NCBI GenBank assembly: GCA_021776135.1
Contig: JAJFGL010000012.1
Coordinates: forward strand, 23,258-87,257
Length of the DNA stretch: 64,000 bases
Reading direction: 5' to 3'
From: Kiloniellaceae bacterium
GTDB lineage: Bacteria > Pseudomonadota > Alphaproteobacteria > Kiloniellales > J153
The translations under genes were made by a program, and so were the position numbers. How positions within the stretch are numbered: the first letter of the stretch is position 1; every line of letters begins with the position of its first letter. The notes under the pieces are model-generated. The model did no database searches. It was not told where the DNA came from and saw nothing but the letters and a program-made list of their open reading frames with translations. Positions 37,481-62,328 of this stretch are shown here, in pieces.

Positions 37481-37557
37481 TGGTCGGGGAGAGAGGATTC
37501 GAACCTCCGGCCCCCGCCTCCCGAAGACGGTGCTCTACCAGGCTGAGCTACTCCCCG
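37481..37557 (-). tRNA. tRNA-Pro (anticodon CGG)
   Basis: Reverse complement CGGGGAGTAGCTCAGCCTGGTAGAGCACCGTCTTCGGGAGGCGGGGGCCGGAGGTTCGAATCCTCTCTCCCCGACCA folds as a cloverleaf. Anticodon loop TTCGGGA; encoded CCA. Confidence 0.95.
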
Positions 37558-37633
37558 GAGCGGCCGGTTTATAGCGGCTTGCCAGCGCCTTGGCAACGGC
37601 CGAGCGCCGGCCGGGAAGTACGGAAAAAATGCC

Positions 37634-38764
37634 CTAAGCGGCGACCTGCTCGAGCTTGTCCATGAGAAAATCGATATCTTCCTTGGCAAAGGTCGATGCC
37701 GGATCCTCGAATTGCGTCAACATACGTTCCAGCATCTTGCTAATAAACCGGGCTCTATCGTTGGGTCCGCCGTCATAGTCGGTTTCCGACGTCAGATCGA
37801 TGCCCGCGCGAAAAACCGGGTACCAGCGCTTCGGCAGATTGGTCTTCAGGTAGATGGACTGCAATCCCAGCCCGCCGTCATCGTGAATTAAAATTCGGGC
37901 GTTCGGCAAGGCGACATTCGCGAGGCAGGCCAAGCCGCGCTCGAAGAAACTCAAGTCGCCTACGCTGATGGCCCGAAGCAAGAGCGAAGGCGTCAAGCGC
38001 CGCTTGCCGTGAAGCTGAAATACCAGGTCTTTCAAGTCCGCATCGGACGAACCGAATTGTACCAGGTTCATGGTCGCGCGTTCGCGCGCTTGAAGGATCA
38101 GGCTCGACGCGACATCGACCGTCAGTTCCTGTTTCTCCGAAAGATAATCCTGCAATTTCTGGGACACGGCCTCGATAAGCTGTTCGGAAATCGCGGCTGG
38201 CAAACTAGCCCGGCGGGACAGGGAATCGGAGACCCGGGTGCTGTTATCGTACTCGTCAATCACACGCTCCAGCGCGCTTTCATTCAGGTCCGCGCCTTCG
38301 TTGGAAACCAGGCGCGCGACCGCGGTTTCGTTTCCGGTATCGATCAGGGCGTCCGCCACGGTCGCGGAAACAAGGGGCCGTTGCGCCACCGCGACTTGCT
38401 TGACTTCGGACTGCCCGCGCACGATCCCAACTAAGTCCGCGTCGGACAGAACCTCGGAGAACTTAATCATCGGCAGCGCCACCGAATCGACATCGTTCGC
38501 GAGCGACAGGGCGACATCGCGCGGCAAGTCAGGAGAGGATTTCAGGTGTGCGGCAAGCGTTTCCCGGACCATGACCTCTGTATCCTTGACCAGAGTCCGA
38601 AAGATATCTTCCGCGATCAGGCGTTCTTTTTCGGTCAGGCCGCCGGTCGAAAACTTCTCCGCGATTTTCCCCGACGTGGTAGCCCGGTTATCGGCCGAAG
38701 GGTTGACCAGGAGGTTTTGGACATCCGCGGCGCTAAGCCGCTGTCGAACGATTTCTTCTGTCAT
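37634..38764 (-). CDS. DUF2336 domain-containing protein (paralog 1)
   Basis: 376 aa; helical-repeat protein. Aligns along its whole length with 38963-40090. Confidence 0.8.
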   Translation of the reverse strand: MTEEIVRQRLSAADVQNLLVNPSADNRATTSGKIAEKFSTGGLTEKERLIAEDIFRTLVKDTEVMVRETLAAHLKSSPDLPRDVALSLANDVDSVALPMIKFSEVLSDADLVGIVRGQSEVKQVAVAQRPLVSATVADALIDTGNETAVARLVSNEGADLNESALERVIDEYDNSTRVSDSLSRRASLPAAISEQLIEAVSQKLQDYLSEKQELTVDVASSLILQARERATMNLVQFGSSDADLKDLVFQLHGKRRLTPSLLLRAISVGDLSFFERGLACLANVALPNARILIHDDGGLGLQSIYLKTNLPKRWYPVFRAGIDLTSETDYDGGPNDRARFISKMLERMLTQFEDPASTFAKEDIDFLMDKLEQVAA

Positions 38765-38872
38765 CGCGCGCTAATTCCGCAGTCCGTGATTCCACATCCG
38801 CCACATATAACCCTCGGGCCGGCGTAGTGCGATCCAAAGAGCCTGGGCGTCTATAGTATGCTGATAGGTCGG

Positions 38873-38887
38873 TTAATCTAGGATTAA
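38873..38887. promoter_or_regulatory. CtrA-type box TTAA-N7-TTAA, 109 bp upstream of DUF2336 paralog 1
   Basis: ttaatctaggattaa read directly; matches the TTAA-N7-TTAA consensus exactly. Confidence 0.4.
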
Positions 38888-38962
38888 CACGTTATAATTC
38901 AAATGCTTAGATGATGTTGAATGGTGTAGAGCGCACCCTGCTCCACACATGGCGGCTGTTGC

Positions 38963-40090
38963 TCAGGCCGCGATTTGGCGAAGCTTGGTAATTAAAAACT
39001 CGATATCGGAAGAACTGATATTCATCGTGGGGTCTGGGAAACGGGTCAAGACGCGCTCCAGCATTTTCTCGACATAGCGCTCCCGGTCATTGCTGCCGCC
39101 GTCGTAGTCGGTTTCAACCGCGAGGACTATCGCGGCACGAAACGCCGGATACAGCGTCTTCGGCAACTTGGCCCGTAAGTACAGGGATTCGAGCCCAAGC
39201 ATTCCCGCATCGTGGATCAGCAGTTGTACATTTTGTAACGGCAGACCCGTTAACGTCGCGACGGAACGTTCGAAGAACGCCAAGTCGCCCGTGCACAAGG
39301 CGCGCAAGAGCAACGAAGGCGTTAAGCCGTTCTTGCGATGAAGCTGAGCGATCAAGGTATCGAGTTCGTCATCGCTGGAGCCATTGTCCAGAAGGCTCAT
39401 GATGGCCCGTTCGCGAACCTGGAGGATGAGATTGCTTGCGATATCGGGCGACACGTCATGCTTATCGATCAGGTATTCATGCAAGCGGTCGGACATCGCG
39501 GCGACCACACGCTCTGAAATGGCGGGGGGAAGATCGAGCCGCCGGGTCAAGGAATCCGTCACCGCGGTGCTGCTTGAATAATTCTCCACGACCCGGTCGT
39601 AGGCCGTTTCGCTTATCCGCGCTCCTTCATTGCGCACCAGGCGCGCCACCGCTTCTTCGTTGCCGGTATCCACCAAGGCGTCGGAAACCTGCTCTGAGAC
39701 CTGGGGCCGTTGCGCGACAGCCGACTGTTTCGCGGCGCTCTCGCCGCGAACAATGGCGATCAGATCTTCATCGGTCAGAACATCGGAGACCTTGAGTAGC
39801 GGCAAGGCGACCGACTCCACATCCCGAGCCAAGGTAAGGGCGACATCGCGTGGCAAATCCGGGTTGGTCTTGAGGTGCGCGGACAAGGCTTGGCGCACGC
39901 GAATCTCGGCATCCGCCGAAAGGAGCCGGAAGATATCTTCCGCGATGCGCCGTTCCTTGTCGTTGAAGGCCGAGACATCGAAAGACTTAGCTATAGTGGT
40001 CGTGGTGGCGGCGCGCGCCTCGGGGGATGGATCGGAAAGCAGACGGGCAACATCGTCTTTGCTCAGCCATTGCGTGTTTTTTTCCGTCAT
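38963..40090 (-). CDS. DUF2336 domain-containing protein (paralog 2)
   Basis: ATG 40090 (MTEKNTQW, parallel to MTEEIVRQ of paralog 1). The ORF track extends to 40147. Confidence 0.8.
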   Translation of the reverse strand: MTEKNTQWLSKDDVARLLSDPSPEARAATTTTIAKSFDVSAFNDKERRIAEDIFRLLSADAEIRVRQALSAHLKTNPDLPRDVALTLARDVESVALPLLKVSDVLTDEDLIAIVRGESAAKQSAVAQRPQVSEQVSDALVDTGNEEAVARLVRNEGARISETAYDRVVENYSSSTAVTDSLTRRLDLPPAISERVVAAMSDRLHEYLIDKHDVSPDIASNLILQVRERAIMSLLDNGSSDDELDTLIAQLHRKNGLTPSLLLRALCTGDLAFFERSVATLTGLPLQNVQLLIHDAGMLGLESLYLRAKLPKTLYPAFRAAIVLAVETDYDGGSNDRERYVEKMLERVLTRFPDPTMNISSSDIEFLITKLRQIAA

Positions 40091-40199
40091 ATCGAACTGG
40101 CACCGTTTGTTTGGTTGCCCTGCGGCATCCGGAATGGCTCCGGTCATGGACCGGAAAAATACTCGCCTACCTCAAGGAATAGTATGACTTATGCCTGGT

Positions 40200-52400: not shown

Positions 52401-53701
52401 GTCTTGGCCCCGTCCAGATAGTTCCGGGTCAGAACCTTGCTCTCCTCGACCGCCGGCTGATCGAAGGGGTTCACCCCCAGAAGATCGGCGGCGAGGATGG
52501 TCTCGAGCATGAAATGCATCATGAGCCCGCCCAGTGCCGCCTCGTCCACCCGTTCCACCGACAGCAGCCGCACCGGGCGGCCATTCTTCGCCAGGGTCTC
52601 GGCGGTCGCCCGGGCCGAGGCGGCGATCAGGTCGCCCAGGGGCCGCCCGGCCAGGTAAGCGGCCCCGGCGGCCTTGGCGAAGGCCGCGTCCATGACCGGC
52701 CCTTCGCCGCCGCAGGCGGGCATGACCAGGGTGAACATCTTGTCGCGCGGCCCGGCCAGGTAGAGCTGCAGCTGAGAATGATGATCCGCCGTGCCCAGGG
52801 CCCGCAGGGGCGTGGTGCCGGTGCCGTCCTTGCCCAGGCTCTCGGCCCAAAGCTGCCGGTACCAGAGGCCCAGGTTGGCCCAGCGGTCCTCGTAGGTCAT
52901 GAGAACGCTTTGCGTAATGCCCCGTTCCTGCAGCAGCCCCATGGCGATGGCGGCGCCCAGGGCCGGGGCCACGTCCTCGACCCGCTTCGCCTCCAGGGCG
53001 GCGCGCAGAACTTCGTTCGCGCCACGCCGCAAGGCCGCCACATCGAGCCCGGCGAGCAGCCCCGGCAAGGCGCCGACAACGGAAAACACGGAAAACCGCC
53101 CGCCGATCCCCGGGTGGTGCGCGATGACCCGTAGGCCGTGACTGGCGGCGATGCGCGACACAGGGCTCTCCCCCGCCTCGGTGATGACGACCGCATGATC
53201 GCCAAGCGCCGCCCGCCCCACCGCCGCCGCCAAGGCCGGCAGCAGGACCGCGCACTGAGCCAGGGTTTCCGCCGTCCCGCCCGATTTGGAGATAATGACC
53301 AGGCCGGTGCGCGCCAAGTCCAGCGCCCCCAGGAGCGCCGCCATGGTGTCGGGATCGACGTTATCGAGGAAGTGCAGACGCGGCCCGCCCAGGGCCGGCC
53401 CGAACCCCCGGTCCGAAAGGGCATACAAGGTCTTGCCGCCCAGGGACGAGCCCCCGGTGCCGAGGATAACCGCGTCGTCCAAACGCCCGCGCCAATCCTC
53501 GGCCAGGGCGCTCAGGTCTTCCAGGTCGCCGCTGTCCCGGACAACGCCCAAGGCCGGCAAACCGCCCGCGCCGAAAACCTGGCACAGCCGGTCATGGGCC
53601 GGCGCGGCGGCCATGAGCCCGCGCGTCAGGGCCCCATCGCTCAAGCCCCCTTCGCCGATATGATCGGCCAGGCAGGTATCCGTCAGGTGTTTGAAGGTCA
53701 T
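52397..53701 (-). CDS. pgi: glucose-6-phosphate isomerase (short bacterial type)
   Basis: 434 aa; [13 protein letters not shown], two SIS-like halves, C-terminal [10 protein letters not shown]. Confidence 0.9.
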
Positions 53702-53868
53702 GATGGCGGCAAGCTATCAGAGTCGCGGGACGCCGGGAAGCGGGCGGTGGGAGGAAAATGCGACGGAATGCGATTTGAGGTGCCGAGAGCGCAAGGTCGA
53801 ATCGAATGTCGGTTCAGCGGATGAAAGCGGTCGTTGTTCTTATGCGATGAGAGAGTCCGGGGTTAGCC
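53664..53868. repeat. direct repeat copy A (native pgi 5' end plus ~170 bp upstream)
   Basis: tcggccaggcaggtatccgtcaggtgtttgaaggtcatgatggcggcaagctatcagagtcgcgggac...ggatgaaagcggtcgttgttcttatgcgatgagagagtccggggttagcc. Recurs at 62533-62739 and in part at 57392-57490. Confidence 0.85.
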
Positions 53869-54050
53869 ATTTTCAAAAGTTCGCCGGATTCGGAATACCG
53901 TCAGCTCAAGGGCTGGAATCGACCCAACGCGGACGTTCATGGGCAAGCCCGTTTACTTCCGCTTTGGGGGCAGAAGGAAACATTAGACAATGATTACTAT
54001 ATTCTAGTATTGGTTGTGATCCAACTTGGTTTTCTTTTAGACTGCCTTAA

Positions 54051-55817
54051 ATGGACCGTTTTGAATTCACCCGGCTTTTTTGTGAACGTCCCCAATCGTA
54101 TGCATGGTTTTTGGGTGCTGGTGCGTCCCGGAATGCGAATCTTCCAACTGCGGAAGACATCCTTACAGATTTAAAGCGGCGTTATTACTGCTCGGAAGAA
54201 AATCAAGAATATTCCACCAAAGATATGCAGAACGAGGCAGTGAGGTCGACCGTTGAGGCATATGTCAAGACGCGCGGTTTTCCTGAACGTTGGGCTCCCG
54301 AAGAATACACAACATATTTTCAGACAATCTTCGGTGAAGACCGTGAGCGGCAACGTCGATACATAATTGGCATGTTAGCGGAAGACCGCGTTCGACTAGC
54401 CGTCGGTAATCGTGTGTTCGGCGCGCTCTTGGCAAGCGGTCTCGCGCGAGTCGCGTACACAACGAATTTCGACACCGTCGTGGAAAAATCGATCGCGGAA
54501 ATCGCCGGAAAGTCACTTTCTGCGTTTCACCTCGAAGGCGCGCATGGTGCAATTGCTGCCATCAACAACGAAGCGTATCCATTTTACTGCAAACTACATG
54601 GTGACTTTCGCTATGACAGCATCAAAAACCTCCAAGCCGATCTTGCCTCACAGAATGAAGACTTGTCGCGCAGTCTTGTAAATGCCGCCAATCGTTTCGG
54701 TCTGATTGTTGTTGGCTACTCCGGACGCGATGCCAGCGTCATGGGTTTACTGCGCGAAGCTCTCGACAACTCAAATCCGTTTCCCCATGGCGTATTCTGG
54801 ATGATCACCAAAGGGTCAGCGGCACCCAAACCAGTTACTGAATTTATAGAAGCCGCGCGTGTACGCGGTGTAACAGCCGAAATGGTGGAGATCGAGACTT
54901 TTGACACCTTAATGCTCCGCCTATGGCGGAATTTGACTGAGCGTCCAGAAGGTATGGACGAGAAGGTACGCAAGGGGCGCGTTGATGCCGTGTCTCTTCC
55001 AATTCCGGAGACCGATGGCGATAGACCGTTGATGCGGTACAATGCCCTTCCGGTTTTATCTATTCCTGATACGTGTTTTATCTTGGAACTGAAAACCAAG
55101 CCGACTTGGGAAACCGTCGGTCCTACTCTCAGGGAAGCTGACCACAATCTCATCACGACCGTTGATGATGATTTGATGGCATGGGGCGATCTTGATGATG
55201 CGCAATCGGTGTTCGGTGACGACTTTGTTGGCTCGTCAGAACATAGTTTCGAGTCGGACTGGCGAAAGACAGGCCGGTTGCACATCAAAAAGTTCTTAGA
55301 AGACGGCATAGGTAAAGCGTTCGCGCGCACGCGTCCGCTTCTCATGCGTCGGCGAGGATCTGGCGTCGTGCTGATCGTCGACAAGATGGCGGATGACGTG
55401 GGCATATTCGAACCACTCCATGCGATAACGGGCAAGACGACTGGCACAATCGCAGGCTTGTCCATTCCCGAAACTGAAGAGCACGATGCGGTCAACAAAG
55501 TGGACTTCGCAGAATCGGTTCGGATCAGTCTCGCATGGGGCGATGACCGTCTTTGGTTGCTGCTAAAGCCTGACGTGTGGATTTGGCCCCCATTCGCACG
55601 TCGTCACGCAACTCAATGGCTGGAGAAACGGAGGGGAGATCGAAGAAACGACAAGCACGATATGCTATTGAGCGCCTGGATATCCGTGCTCACCGATGGC
55701 GCAGGTCGCGCCGAAGACGTGACCCTCACGGCTTTTGAAGGTGAATCAGGACCGGGGAACCCATCCTATAGAATCTCCAGCAGAACCGGATACTCGAACA
55801 AGCGGGGACGCCGATGA
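54051..55817 (+). CDS. SIR2-APAZ protein (SIR2_2-type NADase domain + Argonaute-associated APAZ-like C-terminal region)
   Basis: 588 aa. [14 protein letters not shown] (aa 19-32), YTTNFD (N139, D141), CKLHGD (H183), VVGYSGRD (aa 220-227). About 330 further aa carry no enzyme motif. Stop overlaps the pAgo start. Confidence 0.85.
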
Positions 55818-57253
55818 GCTCAATCATTCTACCCGCCTACGTGTCGGTGCCAGAACCTGAACTATTGTTCCACAATAAGGGCAGAGATCGCCATCCGCTG
55901 CGAGGGCTCATTGATCATGGTCCGTTTAGCTTGCGGTTTGGTGCGCCTTCACGCGTCAGGTTCGCACTCGTCGCTCCCAAAAACGAAATGGCCCGGCTCG
56001 AAAACCTTGTTCATGAATTGGGTCAAACCGCAAAGCCGCGAGAAGCGATAAACTACTACCCGGACTATCCCGGATTTGAGACGGTGTTCCGCACTCCAAT
56101 CGCGCCGATCGATGACACACTCAAATTCGTGCTTCCGCAGGACTTGGACCGGTTCGCAGATGAAAACGACAAAATCAAAATGGCGCGTTTGCTTTTTTCT
56201 GAGATCGCGAAGCTGCGTACTCTCAAGGGGCAATTCGATGTCGCCCTGATTTATCTGCCGCGTCGATGGAGCGCTTGCTTTGAAGGCGAAAACTTCAATC
56301 TTCACCATTACCTAAAAGCGTTCTGCGCTCCGTCTCAGATTCCGATCCAGATTCTAAACCAGGACAGCTTCGACAGAATATGTCGCGCAAACGTCATGTG
56401 GGGGTTGTCCGTGGCGCTGTTCGCGAAGGCGAACGGAGAACCTTGGAAGCTGACAGGTCTCGACCCTCAAGAAGCCTTCATCGGCATCAGCTACGCGATG
56501 CGGAGAAAAGCTGGCAACAGCGGTCAGGAATACACAACATGTTGCAGCCAAATATTCGACCCAGACGGCACAGGGTTTAGGTTTGTTGCCTATGATGCAA
56601 AGGAATTCACTGAGGATCGACGACGGAACCCTTACCTTTCCTACTATGAAATGCAGTCGGTGCTTTCAAAGAGCATGTACGTCTACCAGCAGGGTCATGT
56701 CGGGCGCACGCCCAGAAAAATCACGATCCACAAAAATACCGAATTCAAGCCGGAGGAGATTGAAGCCGCGCTTGATAGTTTCAATGAGGGTACGGAGGTT
56801 GAATTGGTCCAGGTCGTTCAATCAACGGATTGGGCAGGCTTACGTTACACACCAGGCCGGGCCGCTTCGATAGACAAACCCGCCGAAAGTCAGAAAGCGC
56901 ACAACTATCCAGTAGAGCGGGGAACATATGTTCCGATGAGCGCAAATGAAACGCTGGCGTGGACGCAAGGAAGTGTCCGGGGTGTGCAGCTTCAGAACCC
57001 AAATTATTATGTCTACAAAGAAGGGGCGTTAAAGCCTACACCTTCACCAATTTTACTACGTCGCTTTTCGGGATCAGGTGGCTGGCACGAGACGGTCAAC
57101 GGAGTTCTTTCGCTAACCAAAATGGATTGGAACAACAATACGCTCTATAAGAAACTACCGGTCACCATGGTGTATTCCAGTCGTTTTGCGGAGATCATTC
57201 AGCAGAACCCAGAATTGGTTGATCAGGTCTATGATTTCCGCTGTTTCATGTGA
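55814..57253 (+). CDS. short prokaryotic Argonaute (MID + PIWI only, predicted catalytically inactive)
   Basis: 479 aa. [20 protein letters not shown] hallmark and H164-x3-K168...Q179...K205 pocket spacing. PIWI catalytic positions read as S226 (FIGISY), N308 (IHKNT) and S456 (VYSSRFAE). ggggac RBS before ATG 55814. Confidence 0.85.
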
Positions 57254-57391
57254 ACCTGCGTTATGTACGCAATTGGGATATTAGCGGACGTTACGTGCGG
57301 CCATGGCCAACGGCTCCTCTTGGCCGATGGTTGCCATTGCTCTCCAATCTGGTCAATGACCGATTAGGGTCAGATTCAGAGATTCCAATGA

Positions 57392-57490
57392 CCCCTCGCC
57401 GATATTATCGGTCAGGTGTTAGAAGGTCATGATGGTGACAAGCTAACAGAGTCGCGGGACGGCGGGCAGCGGGCGGGGGTCGGAAAATGC
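57392..57490. repeat. direct repeat copy B (degenerate pgi 5' end plus upstream)
   Basis: The reverse strand reads atg acc ttc TAA cac ctg acc gat aat atc ggc gag ggg (pgi codons 1-19 with K4 to stop and a 15-nt deletion), then gatggtgacaagctaacagagtcgcgggacggcgggcagcgggcgg. Confidence 0.8.
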
Positions 57491-60045: not shown

Positions 60046-60122
60046 CCGTCGGATTGGAGGGAGCAAAAGCCGCCTCCGCCACGCGTGAATTTGACGGTGA
60101 GGCCGCAAGCAGGACCCAGCCG

Positions 60123-60458
60123 ATGACGATGCGCACGAGCAAGAAAACGGTGACTTTCAGGAAGCCCTTCATCCTGGGCGGGTTCGATGAGGTGCTGCCG
60201 GCCGGCGCCTACAGCGTGGAATCCGATGAGGATCTCTTGGAAGGTGTTTCCTTCCCCGCCTACCGGCGGGTTTTGACCGTCATCCACCTTCATGCGAAGC
60301 CCGGCTATCCGAACCGTACGCAGACTTTGACAATCGTACCGAGTGAATTGGACGCAGCCCTGGAGCGCGACAAGGCGCCCGCATTGCCCCAAGAAAAGAG
60401 CGACCGTCAAGCCATGGAACGAGGCGAAGACGAGGGGATGTTCGTTCACCCTAGGTGA
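60123..60458 (+). CDS. conserved hypothetical protein
   Basis: ATG 60123 within ORF 60054-60458; TVTFRKPFILGGFDEVLPAGAYSVESDEDLLEGVSFPAYRR; no family name recognised. Confidence 0.5.
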   Translation: MTMRTSKKTVTFRKPFILGGFDEVLPAGAYSVESDEDLLEGVSFPAYRRVLTVIHLHAKPGYPNRTQTLTIVPSELDAALERDKAPALPQEKSDRQAMERGEDEGMFVHPR

Positions 60459-60720: not shown

Positions 60721-61032
60721 ATGACGGACGAAACGGTCGACCTCGACGAGCGTCGCGGCATGGCCGCTCAAAAAGCGACGGAATTTCGCCGCCAGCGCCT
60801 CCACGAGTTTCATTCCGACCAGGCGGCCTTGCAACGCCGCCAGGAAGAGCTCGAGAGACTTCTCCTGGCCGCTCCGGCAGAGACTTGGCCGGAGGCAGCC
60901 GCCAAGGCGCAGTATCTTATCCAGCTCTTCGCCGCCACACTGGAGGCTCAGGAACCGCGCCGCAAGGAACTGATCGCCCACGCACTCGACGATCTCACCC
61001 GTCTGTGCGAGCGCGCGAAGGAAGAGTCATGA
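60721..61032 (+). CDS. hypothetical helical protein
   Basis: 103 aa, predicted coiled/helical. Stop overlaps the next ORF start (ATGA, 61029-61032). Confidence 0.5.
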   Translation: MTDETVDLDERRGMAAQKATEFRRQRLHEFHSDQAALQRRQEELERLLLAAPAETWPEAAAKAQYLIQLFAATLEAQEPRRKELIAHALDDLTRLCERAKEES

Positions 61033-61477: not shown

Positions 61478-61741
61478 ATGACATTGAATTTTCCGAACCG
61501 GAGCCGCAGCTACGAGGAAAGACGGAACCTTGTTCGCTTCTGGGGATATGACACCGCGCTGGAGATTTCGTTTTTCGTGGAGGTGAGCGCTCTCTTCAAG
61601 TTGTATCCGCAAACGAAGAACGAGGAAGCCGGCTATTTGGAGGCGTTCGATACCGCTCGGGACAGAATCCACGAGGCCGCCCGCAAGGTCTATTCGAAAA
61701 CCCGCCAAGGCGCCTACATCCTGGCCGCGGCGGATTTCTGA
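61478..61741 (+). CDS. DUF1488 domain-containing protein
   Basis: 87 aa; MTLNFPNRSRSYEERRNLVRFWGYDTALEISFFVE. Confidence 0.7.
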   Translation: MTLNFPNRSRSYEERRNLVRFWGYDTALEISFFVEVSALFKLYPQTKNEEAGYLEAFDTARDRIHEAARKVYSKTRQGAYILAAADF

Positions 61742-61977
61742 ATTTGCCCGGTATTTCTCTGGCCCAACCTCGTCTTAATTGAGAGGGAAGATCCCAAATA
61801 TCGTCAAAATATCCGTATCGAATATATTATAAAAAGCATTGTTATCAGAAGATTACGGAGCAATATAGCCGGCTATTTATTTTTATTAATATTTAGGTTT
61901 TACTGACTTCTATTTTCGGGTATATTTATAGGTTATTGAGGGGAGAAATAATTTTTCCCCAAAGGGAGAACAACCAA

Positions 61978-62328
61978 ATGAAACAACTTGAATGGCTAAA
62001 GCCTGCACTATTTGGCGCCGCGGCCGGTGCTGTCGCGCTCGCGGTCGTCGGCTTCTCATGGGGCGGATGGATGACCGGCGGGGCGGCCGAGAAATTGGCC
62101 TACAATCAGGCGCGGCTCGAAGTCGTCGCCGCCTTGGTGCCGATCTGCATGGAACAGTCCAACCAGGACCCGCAGGTCGTGGCCATGCTTGCCCAGTTGA
62201 AGGACACCAGCAGCTATCAGCGCAACGACATGCTCATGAAAGCCGGCTGGGCCACGATGCCAGGTTCAAGCGATCCCAATCGGGACGTCGCGCGCGCGTG
62301 CATGGCAAAACTGGCGGCCCAGTTCTAG
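61978..62328 (+). CDS. hypothetical membrane-anchored protein
   Basis: ATG 61978 with agggaga RBS; one TM helix ALFGAAAGAVALAVVGFSWGGW. Confidence 0.55.
   Translation: MKQLEWLKPALFGAAAGAVALAVVGFSWGGWMTGGAAEKLAYNQARLEVVAALVPICMEQSNQDPQVVAMLAQLKDTSSYQRNDMLMKAGWATMPGSSDPNRDVARACMAKLAAQF

Follow-up and report, generated by a model that had tools for sequence, protein, structure and literature searches.

A SIR2-APAZ and short Argonaute gene pair

The stretch of DNA analysed here, 64,000 nucleotides of contig JAJFGL010000012.1 from a Kiloniellaceae bacterium and hereafter called the window, carries two overlapping genes on its plus strand. The first, at 54051–55817, encodes a SIR2-APAZ effector of 588 amino acids, recognised through Pfam SIR2_2, PADLOC and PDB 8in8_B. 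The second, at 55814–57253, is a complete open reading frame (ORF) with an ATG start, 479 codons and a stop, and PADLOC, PDB and Foldseek matches identify its product as a short prokaryotic Argonaute (pAgo) with a MID domain and an inactive PIWI domain. The stop codon of SIR2-APAZ overlaps the start codon of the pAgo gene by 4 bp (ATGA, 55814–55817), which suggests that the two genes are translationally coupled. The pair very likely constitutes a SPARSA-type defence module in the split arrangement of GsSir2/Ago, and judging from its sequence the module is probably intact and functional. The gene order is shared with relatives: of 80 related genome loci, 73 have SIR2-APAZ immediately 5' of the pAgo in the same orientation, and 77 have it somewhere in the locus.

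PADLOC classified the Argonaute as pAgo_I (1.2e-186). Its best match among solved structures is GsAgo of Geobacter sulfurreducens (PDB 8in8_C, E 9.3e-170), with which it aligns end to end (pAgo residues 6–479 versus GsAgo 8–473) at 53.5% identity. The next-best structures are the Argonautes of SPARDA and SPARTA, at ~18–23% identity. A Foldseek search with an AlphaFold2 model of the pAgo placed SPARSA Argonaute chains on top, followed by SPARDA and SPARTA Argonaute chains. The model, built from a 21-sequence alignment, is poor, with a mean predicted local distance difference test score (pLDDT) of 62.8 and a C-terminal stretch of 45 residues below 50, and was used for fold neighbours only. A Pfam scan at E <= 0.1 returned no domain and no Piwi match, because the family is too diverged for the Pfam model.

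The protein consists of MID and PIWI domains only, without N or PAZ; residues 4–478 align solely to residues 252–683 of the Thermus thermophilus Argonaute (TtAgo). An exhaustive search of cluster representatives at 50% identity yielded 1534 matches at E <= 1e-3, and the nearest relative comes from a metagenome-assembled genome of Hyphococcus sp. (88% protein identity). By these alignments, the pAgo and its SIR2-APAZ partner are to be regarded as an uncharacterised, diverged orthologue within a known and structurally solved SPARSA system.

The PIWI domain lacks three of the four slicer carboxylates

We mapped the PIWI domain onto TtAgo, whose numbering was verified on the real gene of plasmid pTT27 (R418, K422, Q433, K457, D478, E512, D546 and D660). 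A profile of 94 diverse, near-full-length short pAgos from the representatives search was aligned with hhalign to a profile of 13 TtAgo-family proteins, yielding a probability of 96.9%, an E-value of 1.6e-10 and 388 aligned columns. Mapping confidence is given as the hhalign posterior, out of 9. This profile-profile run supersedes an earlier one, in which 21 close homologues were compared with TtAgo alone; in local mode it reached a probability of 5% and gave the same mapping.

An earlier note on this DNA, written from the letters alone, had put S226, N308 and S456 at catalytic positions of the slicers. The profile alignment agrees, pairing S226 (56489–56491, plus strand) with D478 at confidence 3, N308 (56735–56737, plus strand) with D546 at confidence 9 and S456 (57179–57181, plus strand) with D660 at confidence 7, these being the first catalytic Asp, the second catalytic Asp and the fourth position of the tetrad. 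All seven pAgo residues and all three motifs named in that note sit in the ORF where it put them: FIGISY starts at residue 222, ITIHKNTEF at 303 and the 12-residue motif that bears S456 at 449. A proper alignment could have revealed acids at these catalytic positions, and there are none at the three named. Residues 221–235 include neither Asp nor Glu, and the TtAgo partner of E220 is a Glu that precedes D478 by six residues; a small shift of the alignment therefore cannot restore an acid at S226. In the predicted secondary structure, S226 lies in the first strand (220–228), N308 just past the strand 302–307 and S456 at the opening of a C-terminal helix, a pattern that fits the topology expected of an RNase H fold.

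For conservation, residues were counted in the best 150 of the 50%-identity cluster representatives, with non-gap rows as denominators. Column 226 is occupied by G, S or A, with Asp in 3 of 129 representatives, and the Ser is invariant among close relatives. Column 308 is R, T, N or S and contains no acid in any of the 150 representatives, and column 456 varies between Q, N, S, K and G, with four Asp among the 150. Across the 273 aligned rows, comprising the window pAgo, GsAgo and the retrieved homologues, not one has acids at all three mapped tetrad positions. One homologue from the representatives search (P0132) has Asp, Asn and Asp at these positions, and seven others have one acid.

The complete DEDX tetrad of slicer Argonautes is thus not present in the window pAgo, from which three carboxylates are absent. 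The three positions of the earlier DEDX alignment were sound, and the fourth, the Glu finger, had been left out of it. The three missing carboxylates would suffice for an inactive PIWI domain despite the unplaced Glu position.

A conserved 5'-phosphate pocket in the MID domain

The MID domain contains an HK-type 5'-phosphate pocket (56303–56428, plus strand) formed by H164 (56303–56305), K168 (56315–56317), Q179 (56348–56350) and K205 (56426–56428). The same alignment to TtAgo equates H164 with R418 (confidence 5), K168 with K422, Q179 with Q433 and K205 with K457 (confidence 9 for each of the three), and in GsAgo the four residues correspond to H166, K170, Q181 and K207. They are nearly invariant among the representatives, with H in 118/125, K in 125/127, Q in 125/127 and K in 128/128. 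The pocket that the earlier note had read as H164-x3-K168, Q179 and K205 is therefore a genuine counterpart of the TtAgo and GsAgo pockets. The ligands of the pocket cation are also in place (57131–57250, plus strand), namely N440 (57131–57133) and the carboxylate of the C-terminal M479 (57248–57250), equivalent to GsAgo N434 and M473. N440 is found in all 116 non-gap representatives, and the last residue is Met or Ile. The pAgo accordingly possesses the canonical HK (or RK) 5'-phosphate MID motif as defined by PMC6299218.

The claim that the pocket has the same spacing as in characterised Argonautes holds only approximately. The distance from Lys to Lys is 37 residues both in the window pAgo (K168 to K205) and in GsAgo, 35 in TtAgo and 39 in RsAgo (PMC6299218).

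Cryo-electron microscopy of GsAgo showed that the guide 5'-phosphate is held by H166, K170, Q181 and I182 together with a cation whose ligands are N434 and the C-terminal M473 (PMC10781750, PMC11452484). The bases are read elsewhere: A1 is contacted by F158, D164 and N184, and U2 by R190 and N195, with H166 touching the phosphate (PMC10781750, PMC11452484). The functional residues of GsAgo conserved in the window pAgo are F156, H164, K168, Q179, I180, N182, R188, N193, K205, Y240, Y365, K402, N440 and M479 (window numbering), and the base-contact positions N162, N182, R188 and N193 lie near the pocket. The suggestion that His instead of Tyr at the first pocket position may bias the choice of 5' nucleotide finds no support in these structures, where the His contacts the phosphate and base recognition falls to other residues. 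By analogy with GsAgo, the more relevant variable for 5'-base choice would be the replacement of D164 by N162.

Taken together with the PIWI columns, the nearly invariant pocket beside drifting, non-acidic tetrad positions is best read from the sequences as a sign that selection has kept the site that anchors the guide, with the adjoining active site abandoned.

The former Glu-finger region corresponds to a sensor loop

The Glu-finger region of the pAgo falls in the loop D261–S276 (56594–56641, plus strand), the equivalent of the 'sensor loop' of GsAgo. Residues 260–274 of GsAgo (YDTREFITDRKGNPY) align gap-free to residues 260–274 of the window pAgo, inside this loop and with identical numbering. 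In GsAgo, the sensor loop is pushed aside by the guide-target duplex, and both NADase activation and plasmid interference require its tip residues N272 and Y274 (PMC11452484). Both tips are conserved in the window pAgo. By analogy, the former Glu-finger loop would have a new role, documented in GsAgo, as a sensor of the duplex.

The SIR2-APAZ partner retains its NADase residues

The upstream protein matches Pfam SIR2_2 at 2e-13, and PADLOC identified it as Aga_SIR2-PNTD1-PNTD2, that is, SIR2-APAZ (4.6e-186). Residues 5–582 align with GsSir2 (PDB 8in8_B) at 3.9e-127. The NADase dyad of the Sir2 domain is intact, as N139 (54465–54467) and H183 (54597–54599) correspond to N142 and H186 of GsSir2, which hydrolyse NAD+ and are essential (PMC10781750). 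Likewise, S224 and R226 are equivalent to the NAD+ contacts S227 and R229 of GsSir2 (PMC10781750, PMC11452484). Both features expected of a SPARSA system are present in an adjacent, co-oriented SIR2-APAZ gene and its Asn-His dyad. Searches of Pfam, PADLOC and the PDB gave no match to a TIR domain, as found in SPARTA, in the partner.

Edges and origin of the cassette

The two-gene cassette has a GC content of ~0.52–0.55 versus 0.62–0.69 in the flanking housekeeping genes, and the 80 related genome loci resemble the window at the DNA level only within 54003–57253, up to the cassette edges. Low GC content and the limits of similarity fit a horizontal acquisition of a minimal two-gene module. Since the similarity stops at the edges, the relatives are uninformative on the insertion site. 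A crude consensus search for promoters and terminators around the operon returned nothing above shuffled expectation, and no sigma-70-like promoter was found 5' of SIR2-APAZ.

The cassette is bracketed by an imperfect direct repeat of ~100–115 bp that is 88% identical between its copies. The left copy (53648–53761) is the true 5' end of pgi and comprises the pgi start codon at 53701 (minus strand), ~18 codons and ~60 bp upstream. The right copy (57392–57490) is a decayed duplicate of this 5' end, which reads ATG ACC TTC TAA and has a 15-bp deletion. There is no integrase or transposase gene between the two copies. The appearance of the repeat suggests either that the target was duplicated or that an element brought along a copy of the pgi 5' end. 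Flanking repeats were sought in eight related loci and found in none, which makes the repeat a peculiarity of this genome.

Exact matches to the pAgo, pgi and TauD proteins were found only in contigs of one sample (Logan SRR15505516), and look-ups with these three exact proteins did not recover a cassette-free 'empty site'. Both contigs of that sample that carry the exact proteins (L082 and L084) end at ~57361–57380, past the pAgo stop and before the right repeat. These contig ends might reflect a presence/absence polymorphism of the cassette in the sample, or simply an assembly break.

The surrounding housekeeping genes are mutL, pgi and those for a TauD-family dioxygenase, an MBL-fold hydrolase and HPF. 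Downstream, the segment 59800–62400 holds small ORFs without a Pfam match (for example 60054–60458, 60721–61032 and 61936–62328) at a GC content of 0.56–0.59, with a DUF1488 protein at 61478–61741 within the run; this segment may be further accessory DNA beside the defence cassette. Elsewhere in the window, positions 1–316 correspond to an alphaproteobacterial two-piece (permuted) transfer-messenger RNA (Rfam RF01849, 232 bits) that is cut by the window start and places the host in the Alphaproteobacteria, and positions 37481–40147 contain a tRNA-Pro(CGG) followed by tandem DUF2336 paralogues (37634–38764 and 38963–40147, minus strand).

Proposed function

The biology of the closest characterised system offers a model for the window pair. 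GsSir2/Ago was shown to combine an inactive PIWI domain with an HK-type MID domain in a heterodimer, to bind ~21-nt RNAs with a 5'-AU bias that is stronger for 5'-phosphorylated RNAs, and to deplete NAD+ upon sensing plasmid or phage DNA (Zaremba et al., bioRxiv 10.1101/2021.12.14.472599). By analogy, SIR2-APAZ and the pAgo would form a heterodimer in which the MID pocket anchors a ~21-nt 5'-phosphorylated RNA guide, probably with a 5'-AU start. Pairing of the guide with complementary single-stranded DNA (ssDNA) of an invader would displace the sensor loop, and the complexes would then oligomerise (into tetramers according to one study). The Sir2 domain would in turn hydrolyse NAD+, so that the infected cell is killed or arrested in an abortive infection. 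The Argonaute would thus act as a sensor without any cutting of its own. The earlier note had proposed binding of a 5'-phosphorylated guide without slicing and an output through the SIR2 partner, and this proposal matches the experiments on the 53%-identical GsSir2/Ago, from which it would carry over.

Inactive PIWI domains and HK-type pockets are not new in themselves. Ryazansky et al. (2018) classified MID pockets and found the combination of an inactive PIWI with an HK-type MID to be the rule for short pAgos (PMC6299218). The pairing is already known clade-wide since 2018 and for GsSir2/Ago since 2022, with biochemistry and structures from 2022–2024. The value of the present locus is therefore mostly one of annotation, as one more diverged SPARSA orthologue (53% to GsAgo), here in an uncultured alphaproteobacterium. 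Two modestly useful leads come with it, namely the natural D-to-N exchange in the residue that reads A1 and the unusual target duplication on either side of the cassette.

Several observations weigh against a straightforward transfer of the GsSir2/Ago model. On the side of the slicer, the S226–D478 column has a low alignment confidence (3 of 9), and TtAgo E512 could not be placed in the pAgo, falling on R271 in one alignment and on P273 in the other at confidence 0–1. The loop D261–S276 contains E264, E267 and D268, and of the 124 representatives without a gap at position 264, 82 have E or D there. The AlphaFold2 model was too poor for an independent structural superposition at residue level. 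Concerning the pocket, the GsAgo mutants H166A and Q181A keep NADase activity, with mutation of K170 lowering it (PMC10781750), and GsSir2/Ago co-purifies with small RNAs bearing either 5'-phosphate or 5'-hydroxyl (5'-OH) ends (bioRxiv 10.1101/2021.12.14.472599). Because 5'-OH RNAs also co-purify, the 5'-phosphate represents a preference and not an absolute requirement. By analogy with the two mutants and the 5'-OH RNAs, the contribution of the pocket is to be taken as partly redundant. Some contact residues also differ from the model system: the A1-contacting D164 of GsAgo is N162 in the window pAgo, the 2'-OH-contacting H310 is E310, and D530/R532 replace Y530/F532 of the GsSir2 APAZ domain, a pair that stacks on the target 3' end. 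Lastly, the activation of SPARSA itself is disputed between tetramerisation (PMC11452484) and a conformational change only (PMC10781750, PMC11370952).

Some of these observations could be assembled into other explanations. If the 'dead' call were an alignment artefact, the pAgo would still be a nuclease that uses non-canonical acids, such as E264, E267 or D268 in combination with other carboxylates. The unalignable Glu-finger column, the acid-rich loop with its frequent E or D at position 264 and the low posterior of the first-Asp column leave some room for this idea. However, N308 pairs with D546 and S456 with D660 at confidence 9 and 7, respectively, S226 has no acid within reach, and throughout the clade non-acidic residues replace one another freely in the three mapped columns, unlike in an active site. 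Structures of GsAgo and the papers on it moreover describe an inactive PIWI domain and a demonstrated sensor role of the loop (PMC11452484), and we consider a cryptic nuclease extremely improbable. A different objection concerns the pocket, which could be a structural relic if the system were triggered by 5'-OH RNA, or sensed invaders without any guide. Such a trigger would accommodate the presence of both phosphorylated and unphosphorylated 5' ends among the co-purifying small RNAs and the NADase activity retained in H166A and Q181A. It sits poorly with the near-invariance of H, K, Q, K and the cation ligands in more than 120 representatives at 50% identity, which implies selection on the pocket, and with the reduced activity of the GsAgo K170 mutant. 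The 5'-AU bias is also stronger among the 5'-phosphorylated RNAs, the structures show the guide phosphate inside the pocket, and the pocket is not of the MID-OH type (PMC6299218). A relic pocket is thus very improbable, and an H164 mutant would probably be uninformative on the matter, as GsAgo H166A keeps its NADase activity.

The remaining alternative takes the cassette to be a recently acquired, non-functional passenger that is unexpressed or mismatched to its host. A GC content below that of the flanks, the missing sigma-70-like promoter 5' of SIR2-APAZ and the decayed target duplication on either side would be in line with this. Both ORFs are intact and appear translationally coupled, though, with every catalytic and ligand residue that we checked retained, and the promoter scan was crude, its matches nowhere in the region exceeding those in shuffled sequence. 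We give a passenger about as little credence as a relic pocket. A SPARSA-type module with a guide-binding, non-cutting Argonaute and a SIR2 output is hence the reading that we carry into the comparison below.

Comparison with known Argonaute systems

The window pAgo is clearly set apart from the MID-OH pAgos, the MpAgo-like proteins that use 5'-OH guides. In these, the Y/H/R-K-Q-K residues are replaced, the cation site is missing and the genes are CRISPR-associated (PMC6299218). The window pAgo has the canonical residues and the cation ligands, and its neighbours are pgi and TauD rather than cas genes.

Long-A slicers such as TtAgo and CbAgo share with the window pAgo a homologous MID-PIWI lobe, the K/Q/K part of the pocket and the arrangement of the C-terminal carboxylate. 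Whereas they possess N and PAZ domains, a full DEDX tetrad (D478, E512, D546 and D660) and cut their targets directly, the window pAgo is of the short type described above. At the first pocket position, these slicers have R or Y and the window pAgo has H.

Among the short systems, SPARDA and SPARHA resemble the window pair in having a dead PIWI domain and a MID pocket sensor, at an Argonaute identity of 21–23%. Their effector, however, is a DREN or HNH nuclease fused to APAZ, and the output is a filament-forming collateral nuclease, not an NADase. SPARTA, which joins TIR-APAZ with a short pAgo (MapSPARTA, CrtSPARTA and BabSPARTA), comes closer in its mode of action. It combines a dead short pAgo with a canonical 5'-phosphate MID pocket, RNA-guided sensing of ssDNA, a sensor loop and depletion of NAD(P)+. 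The effector is nevertheless TIR instead of SIR2, and the Argonautes, at ~18–20% identity, belong to a different short-pAgo clade.

The closest counterpart is GsSir2/Ago (PDB 8in8, 8jkz, 8jl0, 8k87, 8k88, 8y7z, 8y80 and 8y82), which has been characterised experimentally; the window system comes from an uncultured alphaproteobacterial host. At the contact residue N162, the aligned homologues are divided, as N-type and D-type residues are both common. Of the 273 aligned rows, 26 carry the N162-type signature FNHKQNRNK and 9 that of GsAgo. It is a rather unlikely but conceivable scenario that the N162 sub-lineage selects another guide 5' nucleotide or treats the target end unlike GsSir2/Ago and, as a separate matter, that the pgi duplicate records an unrecognised insertion route of integrase-less two-gene SPARSA cassettes. 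The equivalents of the catalytic tetrad read S/N/S in the window pAgo and S/T/Q in GsAgo, with Ser at the first position in both. The two systems have in common a two-gene operon of SIR2-APAZ and short pAgo, the H/K/Q/K pocket with its cation ligands and C-terminal Met, the sensor loop with N272 and Y274, the Arg and Asn that contact U2, the N/H dyad of the Sir2 domain and its S/R contacts to NAD+.

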